A stretch of DNA of 64,000 nucleotides from Haliangiales bacterium (GCA_041916575.1 JAYRZI010000002.1:85117-149116), one strand, 5' to 3'; numbered from the stretch's first letter, positions 5,504 to 64,000 are shown. The notes: generated by a model not told the origin, from the letters alone. A program made the numbers and translations.

Positions 5504-7443
<1,940 letters not shown>

Positions 7444-7447
<4 letters not shown>

Positions 7448-9879
7448 GCTCGGTGCCCGCCGACCCGCGGCTGTGGATCTGCGTGCACGGTCACTACTAT
7501 CAACCGCCGCGCGAGAGCCCATGGCTCGACGAGATCGAGCCACAACCCAGCGCGGCGCCGTACCGCGACTGGAACGAGCGCATCACCGCCGAGTGCTATC
7601 GCCCCAACAGCGCGGCGCGCGTGCTCGACGAGCGCGGCCAGATCACGCAGATCTTCGACAACTACCAGCGCACGAGCTGGAACTTCGGCCCGACCCTGCT
7701 CACCTACCTGCAGCGCAACGCGCCGGATGTGCACGACGCCATCGTCGCCGCCGACAAGGCCAGCCGCGAGCGCTTCAGCGGCCACGGCTCGGCCATGGCG
7801 CAGGCGCACAGCCACCTCATCTTGCCGCTGTGCTCGCCGCGCGATCGCCGCACCCAGATCCGCTGGGGCGCCGCCGACTTCGAGCACCGGTTCGGGCGCC
7901 GACCCGAGGGCATGTGGCTGCCGGAGTGCGCGGTGGACGTGCCGACCCTCGAGGCGCTGGCCGACGAGGGCATCGGCTTCACCGTGCTGGCGCCGCGCCA
8001 GGCCCGCGCGTTTCGTCCGCCAGGCGGACAGTGGCAGGAAGGCGCGATCGATACCCGCCGCGGCTACCGCTGCCCGCTGCCCTCAGGGCGCTCGCTGGAC
8101 CTGTACTTCTATGATGGCGCGTTGGCGCAGTCGGTGGCGTTCGAGCACCTGCTGCGCGATGGCCGCGAGCTGGCGCGGCGGCTGGCCGCACTGCCGTCGC
8201 TGCCTGAGGGGGAGCCCTCGCTCTCGCACATCGCCACCGACGGCGAGAGCTACGGCCACCATCACCGCTTCGGCGAGATGGCGCTGGCTGCGGCGCTGGC
8301 CTCGATCGAGGCCGATCCTCGCCTGCGCCTCACCAACTACGCCGAGCTGCGCGCGCTGCACCCGCCGACCTGGGAGGTGCGCATCGTGGAGCCGAGCTCG
8401 TGGAGCTGCTACCACGGGGTCTCGCGCTGGACCGATGATTGCGGCTGCAACACGGGCGCGCCCGGCGTGCACCAGCGTTGGCGCCGTCCGCTGCGCGAGG
8501 CGCTCGACGTGCTGCGCGACAAGGTGCACGCCACCATCGAGCGCCTCGGCGCGGCGGTGTTCCTCGATCCATGGCGCGCCCGCGATGCCTACATCGCGGT
8601 GCTGCTCGGCGAAGGCTCGGCCAGCGCGCGCGCCGCGTTCTTCGCCTCCGAGCTGCGGCCCGAGGTGGCGAACGAGCCGGAGGTGCAGGGCCGAGCGTTG
8701 TCGATCATGGAGCTGGGCCGCGCGGCCATGCTCATGTACACGAGCTGTGGCTGGTTCTTCGATGACATCAGCGGCATCGAGACCGCGCAGATCCTGCGCT
8801 ACGCCGCGCGTGCGGTGGAGCTGCATCAGCGGCTCACCGGAGAAGATCTGGAGGCCGATCTAGTCGAGCGCCTGGCGCGAGCGCCGGGCAACCACCCCGA
8901 CCGGCCGCAGCTCGTCAGCGGTGCCGCAGTATGGCGTCATCAGGTCGTGAACCATCGCATCGATCTACCGCGCATCGCCCGCCACGTGGCGGTGGCGGCG
9001 GTGGTCACCGAGGAGTCCGAGGTGGTGCCCTACGGCACCCTCTGCGAGGTGGCCTCGCGGCGCGAGCTGCGCGCCGAGAAGGTGCAGCTCGTCAGCGGCA
9101 CCATCCGCCTGCGCGCGCGCTGGCTCGACGAGGGCTTCGAGATGAGCTTCGCCTGCCTGCGCCGCGGTAGCGAGGTGGTGGGCCGGCTCGGCTCTGCCGA
9201 GTCGCTGCACGCGCTGGTGCGCGAGCTCGGGCGCTGGCTCGACCGCCCGGATGCGGCGCTGGCCATGATGTCGGCGCACGCCGGCGCGGAGCTGGAGCTC
9301 GGGTGCCTCTTGCCGCTGGCCACGCGCTGGGTGGAGGAGGTGTTCGCGGCGCCGCTCGAGGATCTCGAGCGTACGGTGGACGAGCTCTACGAGCGGCACC
9401 TGGCGCTGGCGCAGTGGCTGGTCAAGCAGCAGGTGCCCTCGCCCGAGGCGCTGGCCCAGGTCATGCGGCTGGCGCTGCGTCGGCGCCTGGTCACGGCGCT
9501 GGCGGCCGAGCCGGTGGACGCGGCCACCGCCGAGAGTTGCCTCGATCTGGCCGGCCAGCTCGGCGTGTCGCTCGATACCCCGGCCATCGCGCTGGCGGCC
9601 TCGCGCGGGTTGGCGCGCGCGATCGAGGCTGCGGGGCGGGCTCGCGGCGAGCCCGCGCTGGTCGCGGAGTCGCTGGAGCGGGCGGCGCGCATCGCCGACA
9701 CCGTGGCGCGCATGCGCAGCCCGGTGGACTTGTGGCGGGCGCAGAACCTGGTGTTCCAGCTCGTGCACGGCGCGCAGCCATCGGCTGCGACCCAGGATAC
9801 GGCGCACAGCGAGCTGTGGCTCGCGCGGCTGGCTAGCTCTCTCGGCGTGGCGTTGCCCAAGGGCCGTCGTGGCGCTTGA
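7444..9879 (+). CDS. glycoside hydrolase family 57 protein with a C-terminal DUF3536-like extension
   Basis: N-terminus WICVHGHYYQPPRE and HLILPLCSPRD are typical of GH57 alpha-glucan enzymes. It is 811 aa. Its ATG overlaps the glgB stop (ATGA), suggesting translational coupling. Confidence 0.8.
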
Positions 9880-10819
9880 TCGGCAGCGCCTGGCCGGGCG
9901 CGACTCCGGCGGCGTGGAGGCGGAGGCGAGCGAGCCGACCGCGCCGCGCGCGCCCGCCGACCTGGCGGCCGACACGCGGGTGTCGTCGCTCGGCGAGAGC
10001 CGCTATCAGGCCCACCTCCCCGATTCGTGGGACTACCTCTTTCCCTCTGGCGGAGTGGTGCACACGGCGGCGCTGCGCGCGGCGGTCGCGGAGCTCGGCG
10101 ACGAGTCGCTGGCGCTGTGCTCGACCACGGCCACGTTTTGCTCGCCGGTGGCAGCCGGGCCCCTCGAGCTGGTGGTGCAGGTGCTCCGGCGCGGCGTGGC
10201 CACCGCGCAGCTCTCGATCGATGTGCGCAACCCCGGCTCCGAGCTCGGCGCCCGGGTCACCGCCACCTTTGCGCGCGAGCGCTCGGGCCCGGATGTTCGG
10301 GGCGCAGCCATGCCGGCCGTGCGCTCGGTCGCCGACGCGCTGCCCACCGACAGGCCTCCGCCGCCGGTGCACTATCGCTTCTACGATCAGCTCGACTGCA
10401 AGATCGCCTTGGGCGAGCGCTCGTGGGTCGAGGGGCGTGACGAGCAGGCCGGCCGGCCTGCGCGCTACGCGCGCTGGTTTCGCTACCGCGTGCCGCAGCG
10501 CACCGCCGGTGGTCGGCTCGATCGGCTGGCGCTGCCGCCGGTGCTCGATACCATGCCTACCGCGCTCGCCCGCGCCATCGGCCCGGGGAGCTATCGCTTC
10601 TATGCTCCTTCGCTCGATCTCACCGCGCACTTCGTCGACGATACCGAGCGCGAGTGGCTGTTGCTCGCGGCCTACGTACGACGCGCTCGTGCCGGCGTCG
10701 CGATCGGCGAGATCGAGGCCTGGGACGACACCGGGCGCCTGCTGGCCTACGGCACGCAGGCGATGTACCTCAAGACGATCGCAGGAGAGCCGCCGGTGGT
10801 AGACGCGTCGCGTCGCTGA
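9869..10819 (+). CDS. acyl-CoA thioesterase family protein (TesB-like double hot-dog)
   Basis: 316 aa with a thioesterase-like pattern; the GTG start overlaps the end of the GH57 gene. The start is uncertain. Confidence 0.5.
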   Translation: MALDRQRLAGRDSGGVEAEASEPTAPRAPADLAADTRVSSLGESRYQAHLPDSWDYLFPSGGVVHTAALRAAVAELGDESLALCSTTATFCSPVAAGPLELVVQVLRRGVATAQLSIDVRNPGSELGARVTATFARERSGPDVRGAAMPAVRSVADALPTDRPPPPVHYRFYDQLDCKIALGERSWVEGRDEQAGRPARYARWFRYRVPQRTAGGRLDRLALPPVLDTMPTALARAIGPGSYRFYAPSLDLTAHFVDDTEREWLLLAAYVRRARAGVAIGEIEAWDDTGRLLAYGTQAMYLKTIAGEPPVVDASRR

Positions 10820-53529: not shown

Positions 53530-54863
<1,334 letters not shown>

Positions 54864-54963
54864 AGCGATGTGGCTCTCTTACCCTTGGCGCCCCCGGTTG
54901 GCTACTGTTTTGCGTGCGGCTCGGCCGCGCACCAGCGCGCGGTGTGCCAGGCGCGGGCGCGGA

Positions 54964-56742
54964 TCACTCGGGGACCGGGCGCAGGCCTGGGGCGCCATCG
55001 CACTTCACCGGCCGGCGGCCCGGTAGCGCCAGGCGCGGGTGCTTGGGATCGTAGAGGGTGGCCGGATCGAGCCGCTTCTGCCGCTGCGCGCGCAGCACCG
55101 CGGCGAACGCCTCGCGCATGATGACGTCGGTCGACTCTACCTGCTCGAGGGCGATGCCCAGCGAGGCCAGCGCGCCATCGCCGCCCGAGGCGAGGAAGTC
55201 GCTGGTGACCAGGGTGTAGCGGGCTTGCGGGTTCACCGGCTTGCCGGCGATGCGCAGGTCGAGCGCCAGGCCACCGCCCTGGCAGCTCGCCACGATGCGC
55301 AAGCCGCCCCAGGAGGTGTGGGCCCCGGCGCTGGCGACCTGCCGGGTCACGAGCTGGCGGATCTGCTGGCCGGTGAGGGTGAGGAACACGAAGCGATTGT
55401 CGAACGGCATCGCCTCGAAGAGCTGGCCGTAGGTGATCTCGCCGGCCGGTACGTCGGAGCGCAGGCCGCCGCCGTTGGTCATCGCGACCTGGGCACGCGG
55501 GTTGGCGGCCAGCATCATGTCGGTGAACCAGTTGCCGAGCGCGGACTCACGCTCGTATTCGCGGCGGATGGGCGCGGTGGCGGTCACCGTCAGCTTCTCT
55601 TCGCGGCGCGCGCGCGTGCGCTCCCAGGCGCCGGAGACGAGCTGGTCGAGGGCGGTGTCGCGAGTCACCGGCTTGCCCTCGTAGTCGCCAGGGGCGCAGC
55701 GCTCGGTCGGCACCGGCGCGTTGTCGGGGCCGGGCGGGCACAGCTCGCGTGGCGGATGGATGCGCGCGCTGGTGACCTTGCCGCTGGCGTCGACCTGCAA
55801 GTCGACGCGGCCGAAGGCGCGGCCGTTGGCGTACGACTCGATGATAGGCACGCCGTTGACCCGGTGGGCCACCGCGCGGTGGGTGTGGCCGGCGACGATG
55901 ACATCCACGGTGCCGGGCGGCAGCGCGTTGGCCAGCACGAAGGCCTCCTCGGAGGCATCGCACGAGGAGTGATCGTCGGGGTTGGACAGGTCCGAGCACT
56001 TGCCGCCGAGGTGAGCGGCCACCGCGATCACGGTGGCGCCCAGCGCGCGCAACCGGCGCGCCTCGGCGATGGTGGACGCGGCCGGCTCGGTCATCTTGAG
56101 GCCTACGAAGTTGGCCGGCATGGTGGTGCGCGGCGTCGACTCGGTCGACAGGCCGATGACGCCGATCTTGATCCCGGCCACCTCGGTCAAGGTGGAGGTC
56201 TTGACGTTTTTCCACGTCACCGGCGCGCCGGTCTTCTCGTCGAGGATGTTGGCGGTGAGCAGCGGGAACGCGGCCTCGGCGGCGCGCGCCTTGAGTGCCC
56301 CCCAGCGATCCTCGGCGGGGCTCTGCGCCACCACTGCCGGGCCGACCGGGCCGAAATCGAACTCGTGGTTGCCGACCGCGGCGCCGGCGTAGCCGAGCAG
56401 GTTGTAGGCCGCGACCACGTCGGCGCCCTCGGCCACGTTGGACTCGAGGGTGCCCTGGAACAGGTCGCCGCCATCGAGCAGGAGCACCCCGCCGCCATCC
56501 GCGGCGCGAGCGGCGCGCAGGTTGGCGAGGTAGCCGCCGAGGATCGGCAGCCGCGGCAGCGCGCCGTGCAGGTCGTTGGTGCCGACGATGGAGAGCGTCA
56601 GCGGCGCCCGTGGCGCGGCTGGCTGGGGCGGTGCAGGCGGCACGCCCTGGCCCGGCGGGCCAGGGGGAATGGGCGCCTGGATCGGCGCGCCGCAGGACAA
56701 GAGCGCCACCGAGAGGGTGGCGGCGACGAGAGAGCGCAGCAT
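54964..56742 (-). CDS. bifunctional metallophosphatase/5'-nucleotidase lipoprotein
   Basis: Lipobox LLSCG. Calcineurin-like motifs (…[10 protein letters not shown]…, …GGDLFQG…, …GNHEFD…, …VAGHTH…) and a C-terminal 5'-nucleotidase domain. Confidence 0.75.
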
Positions 56743-56820
56743 GGGCGCTACTCTACCTCAAGGGCGCGCGCGCGGTGTCAAGCGTGCGCCAGACCCACGA
56801 GCCTGGCGCGTCGGCGCGAG

Positions 56821-57252
56821 CTAGCGCGTCAGCGTCGACAGCTCGGCGGCCGAGAAGAAGAACGCGATCTCCTCCTTGGCGGTCTCGGGGGCATCCGAGC
56901 CGTGCACGGCGTTGCGCTCGATGTTGGTGGCGAACTCCTTGCGGATGGTGCCTTCGGCCGCCTTCTCGGGGTTGGTCGCGCCCATCACCTCGCGGTTCTT
57001 GGCGATCGCGCCTTCGCCTTCGAGCACCTGCACCACCACCGGGCCCTCGGTCATGAACTTGACGAGGTCGTTGTAGAACGGGCGCTCTTTGTGGACCGCA
57101 TAGAAGGCCTTGGCCTGCGCCTCGGTGAGGCGCATCATGCGCGAGGCGACGACGCGGAGGCCGGCGGCCTCGAGCTTGGAGATGACACCGCCGATGCAGT
57201 TCTTGGCGACGGCGTCCGGCTTGATGATGGAGAAAGTGCGTTCGATGGCCAT
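56821..57252 (-). CDS. ndk: nucleoside-diphosphate kinase
   Basis: Start [15 protein letters not shown]…, with …NAVHGSD…. 143 aa; the upstream extension in the track is not coding. Confidence 0.9.
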
Positions 57253-57487
57253 GGGAAGCTCCGACGGAAAATAGGGCCGCGAGGCGGCGGCGCGGAATCT
57301 AGACGATCTGACCTGGCCTTTCAACCCGAGGGCAGCGGAGTGACCGCGCCAGCGGCGCACCGGTCCGGCCCTTGCTCGATAGGTGCATTTTGCGCGTTGG
57401 CTTTCGCCGCAAAGGCGCCGAATCCGCGCTCGGTTTGTGGTAAGCCCCAACCCCCCCGGGCCGTTCCCGGGCCCTTGGGAGCCCGCG

Positions 57488-59550
<2,063 letters not shown>

Positions 59551-59695
59551 GGGGCGGAGCTGGGCTGGGGCCGCTTGGGAGCGTCGAGAGCTGCCGCGCG
59601 CTGACGCTGCGGAAGTCCTCGTTTGCAAAACGAAAGTGGCGCGCGCCGAGGGCCGTGCGGTACCGTGCCCGCACGACCTTTCTTGGCGGGTGCCC

Positions 59696-60934
59696 ATGCT
59701 CACTCAGCTCTCGTTTCAGAACTATCGCACCTTCGAGCGGCCGGAGACGGTAGACCTTCGCCCGCTGACCGTGCTCATCGGGCGCAACAGCTCGGGTAAG
59801 AGCGCGATCGCCAGGTTACCCCTCTTGCTCGAGCGTGGCCTGTCGGGCAACGCCGAGGTGCCGTTGGCGCTCGAATTCGATGGTCACGACTTCGGCGCTT
59901 CGTTCGCGGATCTGGTGACCAACCGGCTGACCACCCGCGGGATCACGCTAGGGGTAAAAGGGCGCAGTGATGAGCACGACACGCCGTTCGAGTTGCGGGT
60001 CACCGTTGGGTACTGGCCCGAGTATCAGCTCCAGGCCATTCGCCAGTATCGATACTACTGGGAAGGCCAAGTCCGCTATGATCTCGAGTGGGATGGCGCC
60101 AGCGATCCCAACCAGCAGATGCTCTACCGTGATCACAAAAGCGGTCAGGTGCAGGAGCTCTCCTTCGCTGGCTTGATGCCGATCTTTACCAACATGATGG
60201 AGAGGGTCGATTTTCCGGTGGTTCGCTACCTCGGGCCGTTCCGCGACGCGCCGGCACGCGACGAGCGGATTCCGGAGGGCTCGACGTTCGAGGTCGGTCC
60301 ACGCGGTGGCAATGCCGCGCGGGTGCTGGCCAGCGACTGGATTCGTCGCGGGGGCAAGGTCCTGCAGCAGGTAGGGCAGTGGTACCGCGAACATCTGGGC
60401 GGGTGGCAGCTCGATCTGGAGCGCGATGGGCAGCGGTTTGCGGTGGTGCTGCGTTCGCCGCATGAACAGAGCGTCACGGTGAACCTGCGCGATGCAGGCG
60501 TCGGCCTCAGTCAGGTACTCCCCGTCGTCGTGCAGCATGAGCTGGACCGCGCCGGCGTTGCTCACGATCTCCTCCCCGGTGTGTCGACGCTCAACATCAT
60601 CGAGCAGCCGGAGCTGCATCTGCATCCCGGCGCTCATGGCGCGCTGGCAGACCTATACCTCGAGGCGATCGGTCGCGATGCCGGCCAGTTTCTCATCGAG
60701 ACTCACTCTGAGAACTTCCTCCTGCGCATCCGGCGCCGCATCGCAGAAGGGACCTTCTCGGCCGACGACGTTGCGCTCTACTGGGTCAACGACGATCTCG
60801 CCGCGACGCCGCGGGTTCGTCGCATCCACATCGATTCTCAGGGTGAGGTCGACTTTTGGCCGCGCGGCGTGTTCTCCGAGGATCTAGAGGAGGTCAAGGC
60901 CATTCGAGCGGCGCAGCGAGGGCGCGCGCCGTGA
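59696..60934 (+). CDS. ABC-type AAA family ATPase with a DUF3696-like C-terminal region (COG4938-like; OLD/AriA-like architecture)
   Basis: N-terminus [36 protein letters not shown] (Walker A). C-terminal …[26 protein letters not shown]…[21 protein letters not shown]…DDVALYWV gives an ABC D-loop/Walker B and an H-loop ETHS. Mostly α-helical between the two halves. Confidence 0.7.
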
Positions 60935-61911
60935 AGGTATCGCTCGATGTCTCGGTGACCGCCCGACCTGAGGAGCATGGCCACGATCTCGATGCGATCG
61001 TAAGGCGCTGCGAACTCGGGCAACACACTTGGCAGATCGACGACCTCGACGAGCTCCTCGCCTCGGAGTGGATGAAAGGCAAGGCCGCTTGGGACAAACA
61101 AGCTCGCTACGCAGAGAAGGTCTTCACGGACCTCATCTATGCGCCGCGGCGAACGGGGCTCTGGCTGTTGGTGACACAGGCCCCAGCTCCCGTTGGCTCC
61201 TCTACTCAGCGCTACTGTGTGCCCAAAGAGGCCCGGACGATCCTCGAAGAGCCCGCCTATCTGGTCGTCGAGAACAAGGGTTCCGATGGAGCGTTCTTGC
61301 GCGCTATCGCGCGTGTCTACTCTCGTGAGCGGGTCGTGCACGCGCTGGATCAGGGTTGGCTCGAGCCTGCGTCTGGCGGCGGCGGTGGTGAAGTGAAGAA
61401 GGAGGTACTACGCCTTCTCGGATCGCCGAACCCCGTTGCGCCCTGGAGGGTCATGGCCGTGCTCGATAGCGACCGGCTGATACCAGGGACGCTTCCCGAC
61501 AAGGTGAGCAAGCTGCAGCAAGAGCTGATGGGCTTGGGCGTCGCCGTGTGGGTACTCTTCAAACGCGAGATCGAGAACTACCTTCCGTACTCGCTGCTCG
61601 ATTCGCCGAGACGACACGAGGTCTACGTTTCTTTCATGCAATTGACGCGAGAACAACAGGACCACTACGACATGAAGGAGGGGTTTACGAAGAAGAAGGG
61701 CGCACAGGGCGTCGAAGTTCCTGCCGAGCAGGACCACCTCTTCAAGCAGGTCAGCGACTGGCATCGGACTCGGCTGCGCCGTGGTTTTGGCGACGACATT
61801 GGAAGCCGCTTCGGTCAGGCTTCGCTGGACCGCGAGGAGCTCGACACCGTATGCTCCTCCAACCCCGGGGAGCTAGAGCGCCTCCTCGATGCTCTCGAAT
61901 CGATCCTCTGA
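60931..61911 (+). CDS. Toprim-like (OLD / DUF4435 / DUF4276-like) putative nuclease
   Basis: GTG start overlaps the ATPase stop (GTGA). …AYLVVENKGSDGAFL… (Toprim Glu), about 60 aa, …VMAVLDSDRLIPG… (DxD), then …LFKREIENYLPYSLL…. Call made from motifs only. Confidence 0.45.
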   Translation: MKVSLDVSVTARPEEHGHDLDAIVRRCELGQHTWQIDDLDELLASEWMKGKAAWDKQARYAEKVFTDLIYAPRRTGLWLLVTQAPAPVGSSTQRYCVPKEARTILEEPAYLVVENKGSDGAFLRAIARVYSRERVVHALDQGWLEPASGGGGGEVKKEVLRLLGSPNPVAPWRVMAVLDSDRLIPGTLPDKVSKLQQELMGLGVAVWVLFKREIENYLPYSLLDSPRRHEVYVSFMQLTREQQDHYDMKEGFTKKKGAQGVEVPAEQDHLFKQVSDWHRTRLRRGFGDDIGSRFGQASLDREELDTVCSSNPGELERLLDALESIL

Positions 61912-61915
61912 GCCC

Positions 61916-63583
61916 ATGGCACAAGAATCTTCTGCCCCTGCCTTTGTCGTCAAGCCCGAGGTAGTCTTCCTCGAAGAGCTGTTCGAGGAGATCAAGCAAG
62001 GCAAGCTGCGCAGCCCGCGGTTCCAGCGTCCCTTCATCTGGGACGCCGAGGCCATGCGCAAGCTGTTCGAGAGCGTGGTGAAGGGCTATCCGATCGGCAG
62101 CCTACTCATTTGGGATCCTGGAGAGTATTACGAGTGCTTGCCTCACTTCGGGCCGATTGGACAAGAAGAGCCTGCCCGCGATCGCAAGGATCTGGCCTAC
62201 GTGCTGGACGGTCAGCACCGGCTGGCCACGCTCTATGGCGCGACTCATGTAGTTGGTGAACCGCCGGAGCAGTCCGAACTCAGGCGTTGGTGGATGTGGT
62301 ACGACCTCGACGAAGAGGAGTTCACTCATGCTCCGCGAGGCCACGTGGGGCCACATCATCTGCCGCTGCGCAGCATCTTGGGCACCACGGACTTCTTGCA
62401 ATTCTGCAGTCGGCTACTGAAGGAGCGGACTCGCGATGGCCAGGTGCTGGTCGGCCGCGCCGAGCGGCTGGCGCGCCTGATTCGTGGCTTCAAAGTGCCG
62501 GTGGTTCGAATTCGTGGTGGAGCGCTGGAGGACGCCAGCGAGATCTTCTCCCGGCTCAACTCATCTGGCAAGCCGATGGCCGCCGATCAACTCGTCTCGG
62601 CGTTGACCTATCGCGAAGGGCCGGGGGCCTTCGATCTGGCGGCGCGCATCAGCGAGATCTTGACCCAGCTCGGCGAGTTCCATTTTGCAGGAGTGGAGCG
62701 CTCTGCGGTGCTCCGTACTCTCGCGGGCACCGCCGGGATTCGCATTCACAGTAAACCGGGGACGCAGGTCGCGAACTTCTTGTTCAGCGAGAAGTTCACC
62801 CCCGCGAGTCGTGAAGAGCTGGTGGGAAAGACGCGCGATGGACTGGTGGCGGCGGCGCGGTGGCTATCGGTACGTTGTGGAGTGAAGTGCGATCACTTGC
62901 TGCCGTATGCCATGCAGCTCGTGCTGCTCTCGCAGTTCTGGTATCGACGTGCTCCCAGCGCCCACGAAGAGCAGGTGCTGCGCCGCTGGTTCTTCGCCAC
63001 CTCGTTCACCGGCTGGTTCGCCGGCGGCAACACCAAGCAGATCAATGATGATCTCGCGGATATGGGCCGCTTCGCGGAACATGGGCAGCAGAGCTTCCCG
63101 GTCTTCGATGAGCGAGCCAAACCGTTTCCTGAGCGCTTCGACTTGCGCGCGGCACGCGTGCGCGCGTTCCTTCTGGCGACGTTGATCCCGGCGCAGCCGT
63201 TGTATCGAGCGAGCCAGCCGGTAGACCTCGTGCCGATCTTCACCGATGACGATGCGGCGGTGGTGCCCAAGGTGTTCTCTCGACGCGAGGGCTCCGTCGC
63301 TGCCAGCTCACCGGCCAATCGAATCCTGTTGCCCAACCGTGATGGCAAAGGCGCGCGCCAGCAGCTCCTGGATTTGTCTGCAGACGAACAAGAAGTCGTG
63401 CTTCGCAGCCACTGCATCAATGACCTGGCTTTTCGCGCCCTGGAAGACGACGACCTGGAGGCGTTCGTGGCCGCCCGCACCATCTTCCTCATGGCCAGGG
63501 AGCGAGAGCTCTTTGCCGAGCTGCAGCTCGCGTTTCCGGATCGCGACGCCGAGGAGGCGGTGCCAGACGCCGGTGGCGGCTGA
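61916..63583 (+). CDS. DUF262 (ParB/Srx-like, GmrSD N-terminal type) domain protein
   Basis: …FQRPFIWDAEAMRKLFESVVKGYPIGSLLIW… and …YVLDGQHRLATL… are the DUF262 signatures. 555 aa. The C-terminal part shows no obvious H-N-H (DUF1524) motif. Starts 5 nt after the previous stop. Confidence 0.65.
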   Translation: MAQESSAPAFVVKPEVVFLEELFEEIKQGKLRSPRFQRPFIWDAEAMRKLFESVVKGYPIGSLLIWDPGEYYECLPHFGPIGQEEPARDRKDLAYVLDGQHRLATLYGATHVVGEPPEQSELRRWWMWYDLDEEEFTHAPRGHVGPHHLPLRSILGTTDFLQFCSRLLKERTRDGQVLVGRAERLARLIRGFKVPVVRIRGGALEDASEIFSRLNSSGKPMAADQLVSALTYREGPGAFDLAARISEILTQLGEFHFAGVERSAVLRTLAGTAGIRIHSKPGTQVANFLFSEKFTPASREELVGKTRDGLVAAARWLSVRCGVKCDHLLPYAMQLVLLSQFWYRRAPSAHEEQVLRRWFFATSFTGWFAGGNTKQINDDLADMGRFAEHGQQSFPVFDERAKPFPERFDLRAARVRAFLLATLIPAQPLYRASQPVDLVPIFTDDDAAVVPKVFSRREGSVAASSPANRILLPNRDGKGARQQLLDLSADEQEVVLRSHCINDLAFRALEDDDLEAFVAARTIFLMARERELFAELQLAFPDRDAEEAVPDAGGG

Positions 63584-64000
63584 TCTGACAGAAAGCCGGT
63601 GGCTGTGTTCATTGGCCCGCCAACCTGTCGCTGCTGTCCGAAGCGGGGACCGACGCCAACGTCACGGCTGCTGGAGCAGCGGATCGAGAAGCATCTTCTC
63701 CAGGGGCCGCTGCTGTGACGCCGCATTTCTCCACTGTTGTTCAGTCCCTCTCGAAGAGTTTGCGTCCACGTTTCGGCAGAGTCCTGGCAGGTGACATACC
63801 CCTCCGAGGCCTGGTCTTCTGGATCGAGGACGGCGTGCGCTCGGTAGCCCTTCCGGAAGAGGAGCTGAAGGCAGGTGTTCCAGACATTGGGGTGGCTGCT
63901 GAGCGTGGGCATGTTGCCTTGCCTTCCTTCATCCATAGTCTCCTTGCGAGGCGAGCGCCCGCAATCGCGCGTGGCGTGCGCGGCGTCACGTGGGGAGAGC

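Follow-up and report, generated by a model that had tools for sequence, protein, structure and literature searches.

Three adjacent genes downstream of sucCD in a Haliangiales bacterium probably form an accessory, mobile PDC-M55 module directed against phages (or against other mobile elements), in which a sensor, an ATPase and a nuclease would cooperate as they do in Menshen and PARIS. The cassette occupies positions 59696-63583 of the window, by which we mean the whole 64,000-nt stretch of DNA that was analysed (GCA_041916575.1 JAYRZI010000002.1:85117-149116). A first-pass annotation of this DNA had not recognised the ATPase, Toprim and DUF262 combination as a named system. The elements of that interpretation hold, but the combination is already catalogued as the candidate PDC-M55 and Menshen shares the logic of its components. 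The cassette is an accessory defence candidate of an already catalogued family, and so a plausible defence system but not a new kind.

Gene organization and family assignment

The three genes, the features within them, sucCD and the DNA between sucD and g1 are given on the + strand. The first gene, g1 (59696-60934; 412 aa), begins with ATG at 59696, ends with TGA at 60932-60934 and encodes an NsnB-type ABC ATPase (PDC-M55A). The second, g2 (60931-61911; 326 aa), begins with GTG at 60931, ends with TGA at 61909-61911 and encodes a putative effector (PDC-M55B). The third, g3 (61916-63583; 555 aa), runs from an ATG at 61916 to a stop codon at 63581-63583 and encodes a DUF262 (ParB-like NTPase) protein (PDC-M55C). 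The GTG start of g2 overlaps the stop of g1 by 4 nt (GTGA) and a gap of 4 nt (gccc) separates g2 from g3; the ORF coordinates thus agree with the earlier description of three tightly packed genes on one strand, with sucCD directly upstream. The same 4-nt overlap between g1 and g2 was found in 19 of 30 loci, and the two genes are apparently translationally coupled. The order g1-g2-g3 recurred without exception in the 34 related loci from other genomes, as far as the contigs extend. ORFs in high-GC loci were chosen with a GC3 filter.

The family assignment is based on full-length matches in PADLOC-DB: g1 matched PDC-M55A (1.4e-122; residues 2-410 of 412), g2 matched PDC-M55B (2.9e-51; residues 1-326, the full length) and g3 matched PDC-M55C (4.9e-128; residues 10-547 of 555). 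The window genes are adjacent, on the same strand and in the order A>>B>>C, as in the definition of the PDC-M55 cassette, from which we found no structural difference; the window cassette is a divergent Myxococcota member. PDC-M55 was listed by Payne et al. (2024, bioRxiv 10.1101/2024.01.29.577857) as the 'candidate' cassette FAM_00005>>FAM_02935>>FAM_00004, with '47' recorded against it in the supplementary table, and is among 145 phage defence candidates that were proposed computationally by 'guilt by embedding'. In the searchable literature we found no mention of PDC-M55 outside that supplement and no report of an activity test, and some other PDC candidates, such as PDC-M63, failed when they were tested. 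Phage defence by the triad, if confirmed, would turn one of these 145 PADLOC candidates into a validated system.

Predicted properties of the three proteins

In Pfam, g1 matched AAA_15 (1e-17), AAA_21 (1e-8) and, at its C-terminus, DUF3696 (1.8e-5; 25.3 bits with a cut-off of 22). In PADLOC-DB, residues 1-396 were aligned to positions 1-335 of 345 in NsnB (1.1e-41) and residues 136-407 matched HEC-03 (2.7e-39; the model is labelled HEC-03B and is evidently that of the ATPase), while the match to AriA was partial (6e-20) and scored 70.3 bits compared with 141.7 bits for NsnB. These matches place g1 among ABC ATPases of the OLD/NsnB type that end in DUF3696; an ABC-type ATPase with a DUF3696-like C-terminus had been supposed. 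In its Walker A motif, G29-R-N-S-S-G-K-S36 (59780-59803), the residues G29, N31, G34, K35 and S36 do not vary among 31 homologues. In the Walker B region, L-N-I-I-E303-Q-P-E-L-H-L-H-P311 (60590-60628), a Glu replaces the usual Asp, and the alignment columns show Q, E or H as the next residue across the family. That residue is Gln in the window protein, and this could make ATP hydrolysis slow or absent. The same kind of departure in Walker B has been described for NsnB (PMC12065111), accompanied there by GxG for SGG and an Arg for the Q-loop Gln. The C-terminal DUF3696 helix (residues 356-394; 60761-60877) retains W388, P389 and F393 and is, by analogy with the AlphaFold 3 models of NsnB-NsnC in PMC12065111, the predicted docking site of the effector.

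The second protein belongs to a family of 2025 cluster representatives and gave an AF2 model with a pLDDT of 89.6. According to the predicted secondary structure of this model, it begins with an alpha/beta domain (residues 1-104; 60931-61242), which is followed by an OLD-type Toprim core (residues 105-210) and a helical region (residues 211-326; 61243-61908 for the two together). No other part of the system is conserved as little as the N-terminal domain, whose mean column identity is 0.185 compared with 0.30 in the rest of g2; in homologues from prophage and plasmid, the match to the PDC-M55B model does not begin until about residue 90. This domain may be an adaptor, with a putative PIN-like fold.

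The rest of the protein carries a putative two-metal site composed of E114 (61270-61272), D119, D179-S-D181 (61465-61473), E215 within KREIENYL (61561-61584) and K249. All six acidic and basic residues (E114, D119, D179, D181, E215 and K249) are conserved and follow one another as in the two-metal site of BpOLD, and E114, D179-S-D181 and K211-REIENYL-218 vary little or not at all among 67 family members. The Toprim signature (E...DxD) and KREIENYL motif that had been read from the sequence are therefore present and conserved, and the best fold match of g2 is an OLD-family Toprim, with OLD ahead of AriB. In the proposed comparison by Foldseek, run against the PDB, nothing reached E<=0.001, and the AriB chain of PARIS came first at E 0.02. 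Profile searches returned little. There was no match for g2 in Pfam, where the 67 family members gave scattered chance matches only; neither g2 nor these 67 relatives matched DUF4435, and g2 matched neither DUF4276 nor RloB; NCBIfam returned nothing for g2, and the family profile found nothing meaningful among all PDB sequences. On the evidence of the modelled fold and the conserved catalytic residues, we predict that g2 is a putative OLD-type Toprim nuclease.

The earlier identification of g3 as a DUF262 protein stands, with a GmrSD_N/DUF262 match in Pfam (4e-23) and intact motifs. The domain covers residues 19-230 (61970-62605) and contains F36-Q-R-P-F-I-W42, D98-G-Q-H-R102 (62207-62221) and F211-x3-N215, which are retained in both sets of homologues (30 and 43 sequences) and agree with DUF262 motifs I-III of PMC12065111. 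It is followed by a helical C-terminal region (residues 236-555; 62621-63580) without a recognisable nuclease active site, in which R414, N468, R469, H499, R521 and E529 are conserved. No match to the DUF1524 model of Pfam was obtained for g3 at E<=1. We considered whether the C-terminus, 'DLVPIF...PANRILLPNRDGKG', might be a degenerate and still active DUF1524 His-Me finger, and rejected this, as neither the 30 nor the 43 homologues share a histidine where the His-Me motif would require one. N468, R469 and H499 could conceivably belong to a strongly altered site. With no DUF1524 domain and no conserved catalytic histidine in g3, it would fall to g2 to provide any nuclease activity.

Comparison with known defence systems

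Menshen (NsnABC; Millman et al. 2022; Li et al. 2025, PMC12065111) has the same logic of components. With NsnB, g1 shares the DUF3696 tail and the unusual motifs, namely Glu for the Walker B Asp, the GxG signature and Arg for the Q-loop Gln. As in NsnA, the DUF262 domain of g3 is followed by a helical part in which no nuclease was recognised; in NsnA this part is the DNA-binding domain ParBDB, and that of g3 may be similar. Like NsnC, g2 combines a hypervariable N-terminal domain with a predicted C-terminal nuclease; the N-terminal domain of NsnC is an inactive PIN-like (inPIN) domain, and that of g2 may be PIN-like as well. However, the genes stand in the order B-C-A instead of A-B-C, in the window as in the 34 loci where the contig allows it to be seen, and a search by the rule of Li et al., in which NsnA is followed by NsnB, would probably miss this arrangement. 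Some Menshen systems use effectors with a Toprim fold, including DUF4276 and RloB (PMC12065111), whereas the effector here is of the OLD type and matches neither of these. In length, g3 exceeds the NsnA model by about 170 residues, and the window protein is only weakly similar to that model (2.4e-7; residues 17-61 only); in its homologues on plasmid and prophage, residues 11-348 align with positions 46-333 of 385 in the same model at about 1e-11.

In OLD and GajA, a single polypeptide combines the ATPase and the Toprim, whereas in the cassette each has its own gene and g2 carries a further domain at its N-terminus; the putative catalytic set of Toprim Glu, DxD and helical-domain Glu/Lys is found in g2 as well. 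Gabija and class 2 OLD systems have a helicase partner of the UvrD/GajB type, which is not adjacent here, its place being taken by the DUF262 gene. The ATPase model of HEC-03 matches g1, and the partner of that ATPase is an effector with a PIN-type domain (Payne et al. 2024). However, HEC-03 is a validated two-gene system that has an active VapC-like PIN effector and neither Toprim nor DUF262.

Taken further, these comparisons lead to a more specific reading, which we put forward tentatively and consider not quite as probable as its opposite. PDC-M55 would be both a functional anti-phage system and a distinct branch of a Menshen superfamily with permuted gene order, in which a fast-evolving adaptor tethers a split-off OLD-type Toprim nuclease to an NsnB-type ATPase and a long GmrSD-like DUF262 protein, having lost its nuclease, acts as the DNA sensor. 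OLD/Gabija (fused), PARIS (split) and Menshen (with the DUF262 sensor added) would then join one modular family. Independently of this reading, if the triad does protect against phage, an OLD-type Toprim nuclease can be placed under the control of Menshen-type sensing, with a DUF262 protein and an NsnB-type ATPase, and several families of ABC-ATPase defence proteins become connected.

Possible mechanism and alternatives

We infer a defence function, a role for each protein and the substrate of the nuclease as follows. The ATPase would oligomerise, and its DUF3696 helix would hold the variable N-terminal domain of g2, keeping the OLD-type two-metal Toprim nuclease inactive. The g3 protein, a ParB-like DUF262 NTPase with a helical and probably DNA-binding C-terminal region, would sense invading, possibly modified, DNA. 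This would alter the nucleotide state of g1, and g2 would be released or activated. The nuclease may then cut DNA, as OLD and GajA do, or tRNA or other RNA, as AriB does, so that phage replication would be blocked or the infection aborted.

It is also conceivable, though in our view unlikely, that the cassette works by type IV-like restriction. In that case g3 would recognise modified or foreign DNA in the manner of GmrSD, BrxU and SspE and recruit g1 and g2 to degrade it, with no sequestration and release and no toxicity to the host. The GmrSD_N domain of g3 is shared with those enzymes, but the DUF1524 His-Me nuclease and a conserved catalytic histidine are not. Against direct recruitment, the Menshen models predicted no complex of NsnA with NsnB or with NsnC (PMC12065111), and a hypervariable N-terminal domain in g2 fits the interface of an arms race better than a fixed recruitment module.

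Abortive infection of the PARIS kind appears still less probable. Here g1 and g2 would detect a protein of the phage, for example a DNA mimic that counters restriction, g2 would be released to cleave tRNA, and g3 would be accessory or independent. PARIS (AriA-AriB) has two genes and no DUF262 partner, whereas three genes are conserved here. Wherever the contig allows, g3 is present in all loci but one, and it therefore looks integral to the system. In addition, AriB is a DUF4435 protein, and g2 has no such match and resembles OLD more than AriB, while g1 resembles NsnB far more than AriA, scoring twice as high on the former. The release of an OLD-type nuclease after sensing by g3 remains the reading that we prefer.

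Mobility and the site downstream of sucD

Upstream of the cassette lie sucC (57488-58669) and sucD (58666-59550), which are 92-97% identical to homologues from Kofleriaceae and other Myxococcota MAGs. The normal arrangement at the site, of which sucD is the upstream edge, is ndk directly after sucD. We compared the site in relatives whose sucD is 92-97% identical to that of the window. It is empty, with sucD followed by ndk, in three of them (L044, L045, L047), and the triad is present in the window and in three others (L001, L042, L043). L041, fully syntenic with the window in all other respects, has a HEC-01A-like ATPase pair there, and L046 and L048 have an unrelated gene pair. Housekeeping-like synteny with sucCD in all relatives is thus not what we observed. 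Compared with L001, sucC and sucD are 92-93% identical, whereas g1, g2 and g3 are 59%, 43% and 68% identical, a divergence 3-8 times that of the flanks. This position is a chromosomal hotspot in Kofleriaceae-like Myxococcota, where different ABC-ATPase cassettes replace each other, and it could be used to find further cargo.

Outside these genomes, the triad was found in Gammaproteobacteria, Acidobacteriota, Actinomycetota, Bacteroidota and Desulfobacterales in addition to Myxococcota. One copy, from Leclercia, is on the conjugative IncFII plasmid pYUSHP29-2 with an integrase adjoining it. Another is in a P2-like prophage, with a gpA-like gene on one side and a portal gene on the other; this interval, gpA-gpQ, is the documented old/tin defence hotspot of such prophages. 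There was no match to the triad among INPHARED phages, nor in near and distant DNA searches of 5,426 complete E. coli genomes with prophage and plasmid copies. The window copy has no integrase, no meaningful direct or inverted repeats flanking the cassette and no tRNA within 14 kb. Based on its distribution, we consider that the cassette is accessory and horizontally mobile. The enterobacterial copy on the conjugative plasmid, the copy in the P2 old/tin hotspot and the specific catalytic residues provide testable material.

A non-defence role, either in housekeeping DNA maintenance (a ParB-like protein, an SMC-like ATPase and a Toprim linked to sucCD) or as a selfish addiction or toxin-antitoxin-type module, would suit a window copy that sits amid housekeeping genes without mobility genes, is sucCD-linked in four relatives, has moved together with sucCD in an inversion and is built of ParB, SMC-like and Toprim folds that serve chromosome biology too, but the housekeeping form conflicts with the empty or differently occupied sites of close relatives, the excess divergence, the patchy phyletic spread and the carriage on plasmid and in a prophage hotspot. 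An addiction role could agree with these data, but we regard the non-defence idea as a whole as very improbable. Across 25 genome neighbourhoods, the neighbours were mostly housekeeping genes with few defence genes. Among 140 neighbouring ORFs there were 3 other ABC-ATPase defence proteins, 2 Eco57I/MmeI-type methylases and 2 matches to mad2, a component of another defence system, which are too sparse for us to claim enrichment in defence islands.

Between sucD and g1 there are 145 nt (59551-59695) with a hairpin at 59654-59675. No sigma-70-like promoter was found in this region, terminator-like sites including the hairpin were no more frequent than expected by chance, the RNA fold of the leader was no better than that of shuffled sequences (z 0.12), and the leader had no match in Rfam. 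The cassette has a GC content of 61-64%, with a window mean of 69.5%, and its GC3 of 74-78% compares with 90-95% in sucCD, which bears out the earlier remark that its codon and GC usage is less extreme than that of the flanks. The DNA beyond 63583 had also been described as lower in GC; this is true of the 417-nt tail of the window (63% GC), but the ORF that starts there has 71% GC overall.

Family assignment and organization of the cassette

The three genes that follow sucD in the window, encoding an ABC ATPase (g1), a Toprim-type protein (g2) and a DUF262 protein (g3), form a new and divergent member of PDC-M55, an already catalogued family of candidate phage defence systems, and they have a Menshen-like design. 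They match PDC-M55A, PDC-M55B and PDC-M55C of PADLOC-DB v2 over their full lengths (1.4e-122, 2.9e-51 and 4.9e-128, respectively), so the three-way combination, which the first-pass annotation did not know as a named system, is already on record. In the supplementary table of Payne et al. 2024 (bioRxiv 10.1101/2024.01.29.577857), the cassette CAS_00179 (FAM_00005>>FAM_02935>>FAM_00004) is marked 'Assign as candidate PDC-M55', with the number 47 beside the entry; PDC-M55 was otherwise unmentioned in the literature that we searched. Among the other PDC candidates, PDC-M05 protected against phages and PDC-M63 did not. The explicit connection between PDC-M55 and Menshen is a contribution of the present analysis.

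The genes are tightly packed on the plus strand immediately behind sucD (58666-59550, plus), which itself directly follows sucC (57488-58669, plus). The GTG start of g2 (60931-61911, 326 aa) shares the tetranucleotide GTGA with the stop of g1 (59696-60934, 412 aa), and g3 (61916-63583, 555 aa) begins after a gap of 4 nt, an arrangement that agrees with the first-pass annotation. Base composition sets the cassette apart from its surroundings, as had also been noticed from the sequence alone: its G+C content is 61-64%, compared to a mean of 69.5% in the window, and its GC3 is 74-78%, compared to 90-95% in sucCD and 83-84% in the next genes downstream. Antisense ORFs over g1-g3 (59948-63936, up to 347 aa; one of them at 62893-63936, minus strand) were rejected as typical artefacts of high-GC DNA. 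A GC-rich hairpin of 7 pairs at 59654-59675, followed by ACCTTTCTTG, lies 20 nt 5' of the g1 start codon. As a terminator-like element it was at chance level by scan statistics, and the RNA fold of the whole leader upstream of g1 was not better than that of shuffled sequence.

The three proteins

As the first-pass annotation had proposed, g1 is an ABC ATPase with a DUF3696-like C-terminus, matching AAA_15 (1e-17), AAA_21 (1e-8) and DUF3696 (25.3 bits, with a Pfam cut-off of 22 bits). Of the characterised proteins in PADLOC-DB, NsnB of Menshen (1.1e-41, full length) and the ATPase of HEC-03 (2.7e-39) come closest to it; AriA (6e-20) and GajA/Old are well behind. Walker A (GxNxxGKS) and the H-loop (ETHS) do not vary among 31 homologues, the Walker B aspartate is replaced by glutamate in every sequence, the signature reads DxGxG, and two invariant arginines occupy the Q-loop position. 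The residue after the Walker B glutamate is Q, E or H across the family and Q (residue 304) in the window. The same departures in Walker B, signature and Q-loop were described for NsnB by Li et al. (PMC12065111).

No match to g2 was found in Pfam, NCBIfam or PDB sequences, nor did sequence searches with 67 family members or with the family profile return one. The family is nevertheless large: among 1.84 billion cluster representatives, the profile recovered 2025 members, of which 727 scored E<=1e-30, and nearly all of the best 150 of the 2025 are 310-345 aa long. In the family alignment E114, D119, D179 and E215 are invariant and D181 and K249 almost so, and these residues match the order of the two-metal site of BpOLD (E400, E404, D455, D457, E508, K562). 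The E...DxD Toprim signature read earlier from the sequence is borne out, and we assign to this protein without a Pfam match a putative OLD-type Toprim active site, an assignment contributed by the present analysis. The AlphaFold2 model was confident (pLDDT 89.6, pTM 0.85); Foldseek of g2 returned no significant match. The first 104 residues make up an alpha/beta domain of their own, in which conservation is lowest (column identity 0.185, compared to 0.30 in the remainder). Within this otherwise hypervariable domain, His32 (61024-61026), which belongs to a GQH/GRHxW motif, does not vary among 67 family members.

The DUF262 (GmrSD N-terminal) identity of g3 was likewise confirmed, by the Pfam domain (DUF262/GmrSD_N, 4e-23) and by all three motifs of this domain, FQRPFIW, DGQHR and FxxxN. 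The Pfam search found no DUF1524 in g3, and its homologues have no conserved histidine at the position needed by a His-Me finger. An alternative role for the cassette is direct restriction of a type IV-like kind.

Comparison with Menshen and proposed function

In Menshen (NsnABC), NsnA, a ParB-DUF262 protein with a helical DNA-binding domain, is the sensor; NsnB, an OLD-ABC ATPase with DUF3696, is the transducer; and NsnC joins a hypervariable inactive-PIN domain to a nuclease, which has a Toprim fold in some systems (Li et al., PMC12065111). The DUF3696 helices of NsnB are predicted to clamp the N-terminal domain of NsnC (Li et al., PMC12065111). The triad shares this parts list, and g3 homologues from a prophage and a plasmid align to the NsnA model across about 340 residues. 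The g2 homologues from the same two elements match PDC-M55B from about residue 90 onwards and not before, an unmatched N-terminus that echoes the polymorphism of NsnC. However, the order of the triad is B-C-A at every locus, its effector is an OLD-type Toprim protein instead of the DUF4276 or RloB of Menshen, g3 exceeds the NsnA model in length by about 170 residues, and the N-terminal alpha/beta domain of g2 is only possibly PIN-like. Because of these differences in gene order, effector, g3 length and g2 N-terminus, we file the cassette under PDC-M55, Menshen-like in its working, and not as a member of Menshen.

The best-supported reading is a defence module of sensor, ATPase and nuclease, in which g3 would sense DNA, g1 would relay the signal and hold g2 in check, and g2 would cut nucleic acid. 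Our data show the folds, the conserved catalytic residues, the constant association of the genes with apparent translational coupling, and their accessory, mobile behaviour. That the module defends, what each protein does in it, how g1 docks on g2 and what the nuclease cuts are inferred from the analogous Menshen, PARIS, OLD and GmrSD-family proteins. In a PARIS-like alternative, a protein would be sensed and tRNA cleaved.

An accessory site behind sucD

When genomes were scanned with the g2 family, 34 loci emerged, in Myxococcota, Gammaproteobacteria (Thiomargarita, Marithrix, Veronia and Shewanella), Acidobacteriota, Micromonospora, Arcicella and Desulfobacterales. Wherever the contig permits, g1 lies directly 5' and g3 directly 3' of g2; the sole exception, locus L031, has no DUF262 gene. 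The 4-nt overlap of g1 and g2 recurs in 19 of 30 loci, which suggests translational coupling. In the variant locus L031 (6439-11236), g1 is accompanied by a 468-aa g2-like protein, and a Schlafen AlbA_2/HATPase_c_4 protein is encoded about 800 nt downstream.

The first-pass annotation had named synteny of the three genes with sucCD across all related genomes as a refuting condition, and we checked this at the site in genomes with a sucD 92-97% identical to that of the window. In three of them it is empty, with ndk 66-78 nt after sucD (L044 7253-7329, L045 7886-7950 and L047 7886-7950). The triad occupies it in L001, L042 and L043, as well as in the window (59551-63583), and L046 (8036-10586) and L048 (5502-8052) carry an unrelated pair, a 449-aa protein without a Pfam match and an RCC1/WD40-like protein. 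Locus L041 and the window share synteny on either side of the site (5'-nucleotidase 74%, ndk 90%, sucC 92%, sucD 96%, downstream ORF 40% and radical SAM gene 62% identity), and the place of the triad is taken by a HEC-01A-like ABC ATPase (1.5e-37), together with a protein of 201 aa (7959-9888). The cassette is therefore not a fixed companion of sucCD in related genomes, three sites being empty and three holding other cargo, and we regard the site after sucD, where ndk is usually next, as a variable-cargo hotspot of Kofleriaceae-like genomes.

Where the triad is shared, it evolves far faster than its flanks: between the window and L001, identity is 92-93% for sucC/sucD and 59%, 43% and 68% for g1, g2 and g3. 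Other close relatives of g3, 66-68% identical, stand in unrelated genomic contexts. In the window, the block of ndk and 5'-nucleotidase (54003-57254, minus strand) precedes sucC, and in L001 (10778-14173, plus strand) it comes after g3, so the sucC-sucD-triad unit is inverted relative to this flank.

The triad also travels. In Leclercia adecarboxylata it is found beside a tyrosine recombinase on a conjugative IncFII plasmid, pYUSHP29-2, at 57383-61106 of NZ_CP087282.1, with the proteins WP_230431586, WP_230431587 and WP_172693805. On the IMG/VR contig L049 it belongs to a P2-like prophage (prophage copy UViG_2884592472_000002), where a gpA-like replication gene (phrog_91, 9e-280) stands on one side of it and the portal/terminase/scaffold genes on the other. 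The interval from gpA to portal is a hotspot of P2 in which old and tin reside and in which PARIS was found. The evidence from hotspot, plasmid and P2 locus is a further contribution of the present analysis. Marks of mobility were absent from the window copy, and the genomic neighbours of the triad loci are mostly housekeeping genes. A non-defence or addiction role is a further alternative; we consider the operon genuine, accessory and well conserved, and a credible candidate for defence.

A 389-aa ORF beginning at 63715 passes the window end (64000) and continues to position 5832 of locus L035. It had no match in Pfam or PADLOC; a 40% identical homologue is at the matching position in L041, and in both places the next gene, on the minus strand, encodes a B12-binding radical SAM protein. 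Directly after the triad in L043 (12214-14888) are genes for a YukD-like ubiquitin-fold protein, a ThiF-type E1 (PADLOC E1-E2 5e-19, BilD 3e-7) and a JAB peptidase, possibly a ubiquitin-type defence system of the Bil kind. Three copies show signs of being decayed or variant: g2 of L043 (9321-10250) is annotated as 130 aa only, with a full tblastn alignment; g2 of L028 (7710-8692) has 271 aa, with a gap of 167 nt after it; and g3 of L018 (8717-10789) has 690 aa. In the ENA contig L036, a full-length g1 homologue (5751-7004, 60% identity by tblastn) has no gene in the source annotation, probably owing to a gene-calling gap or assembly indels and not to loss.
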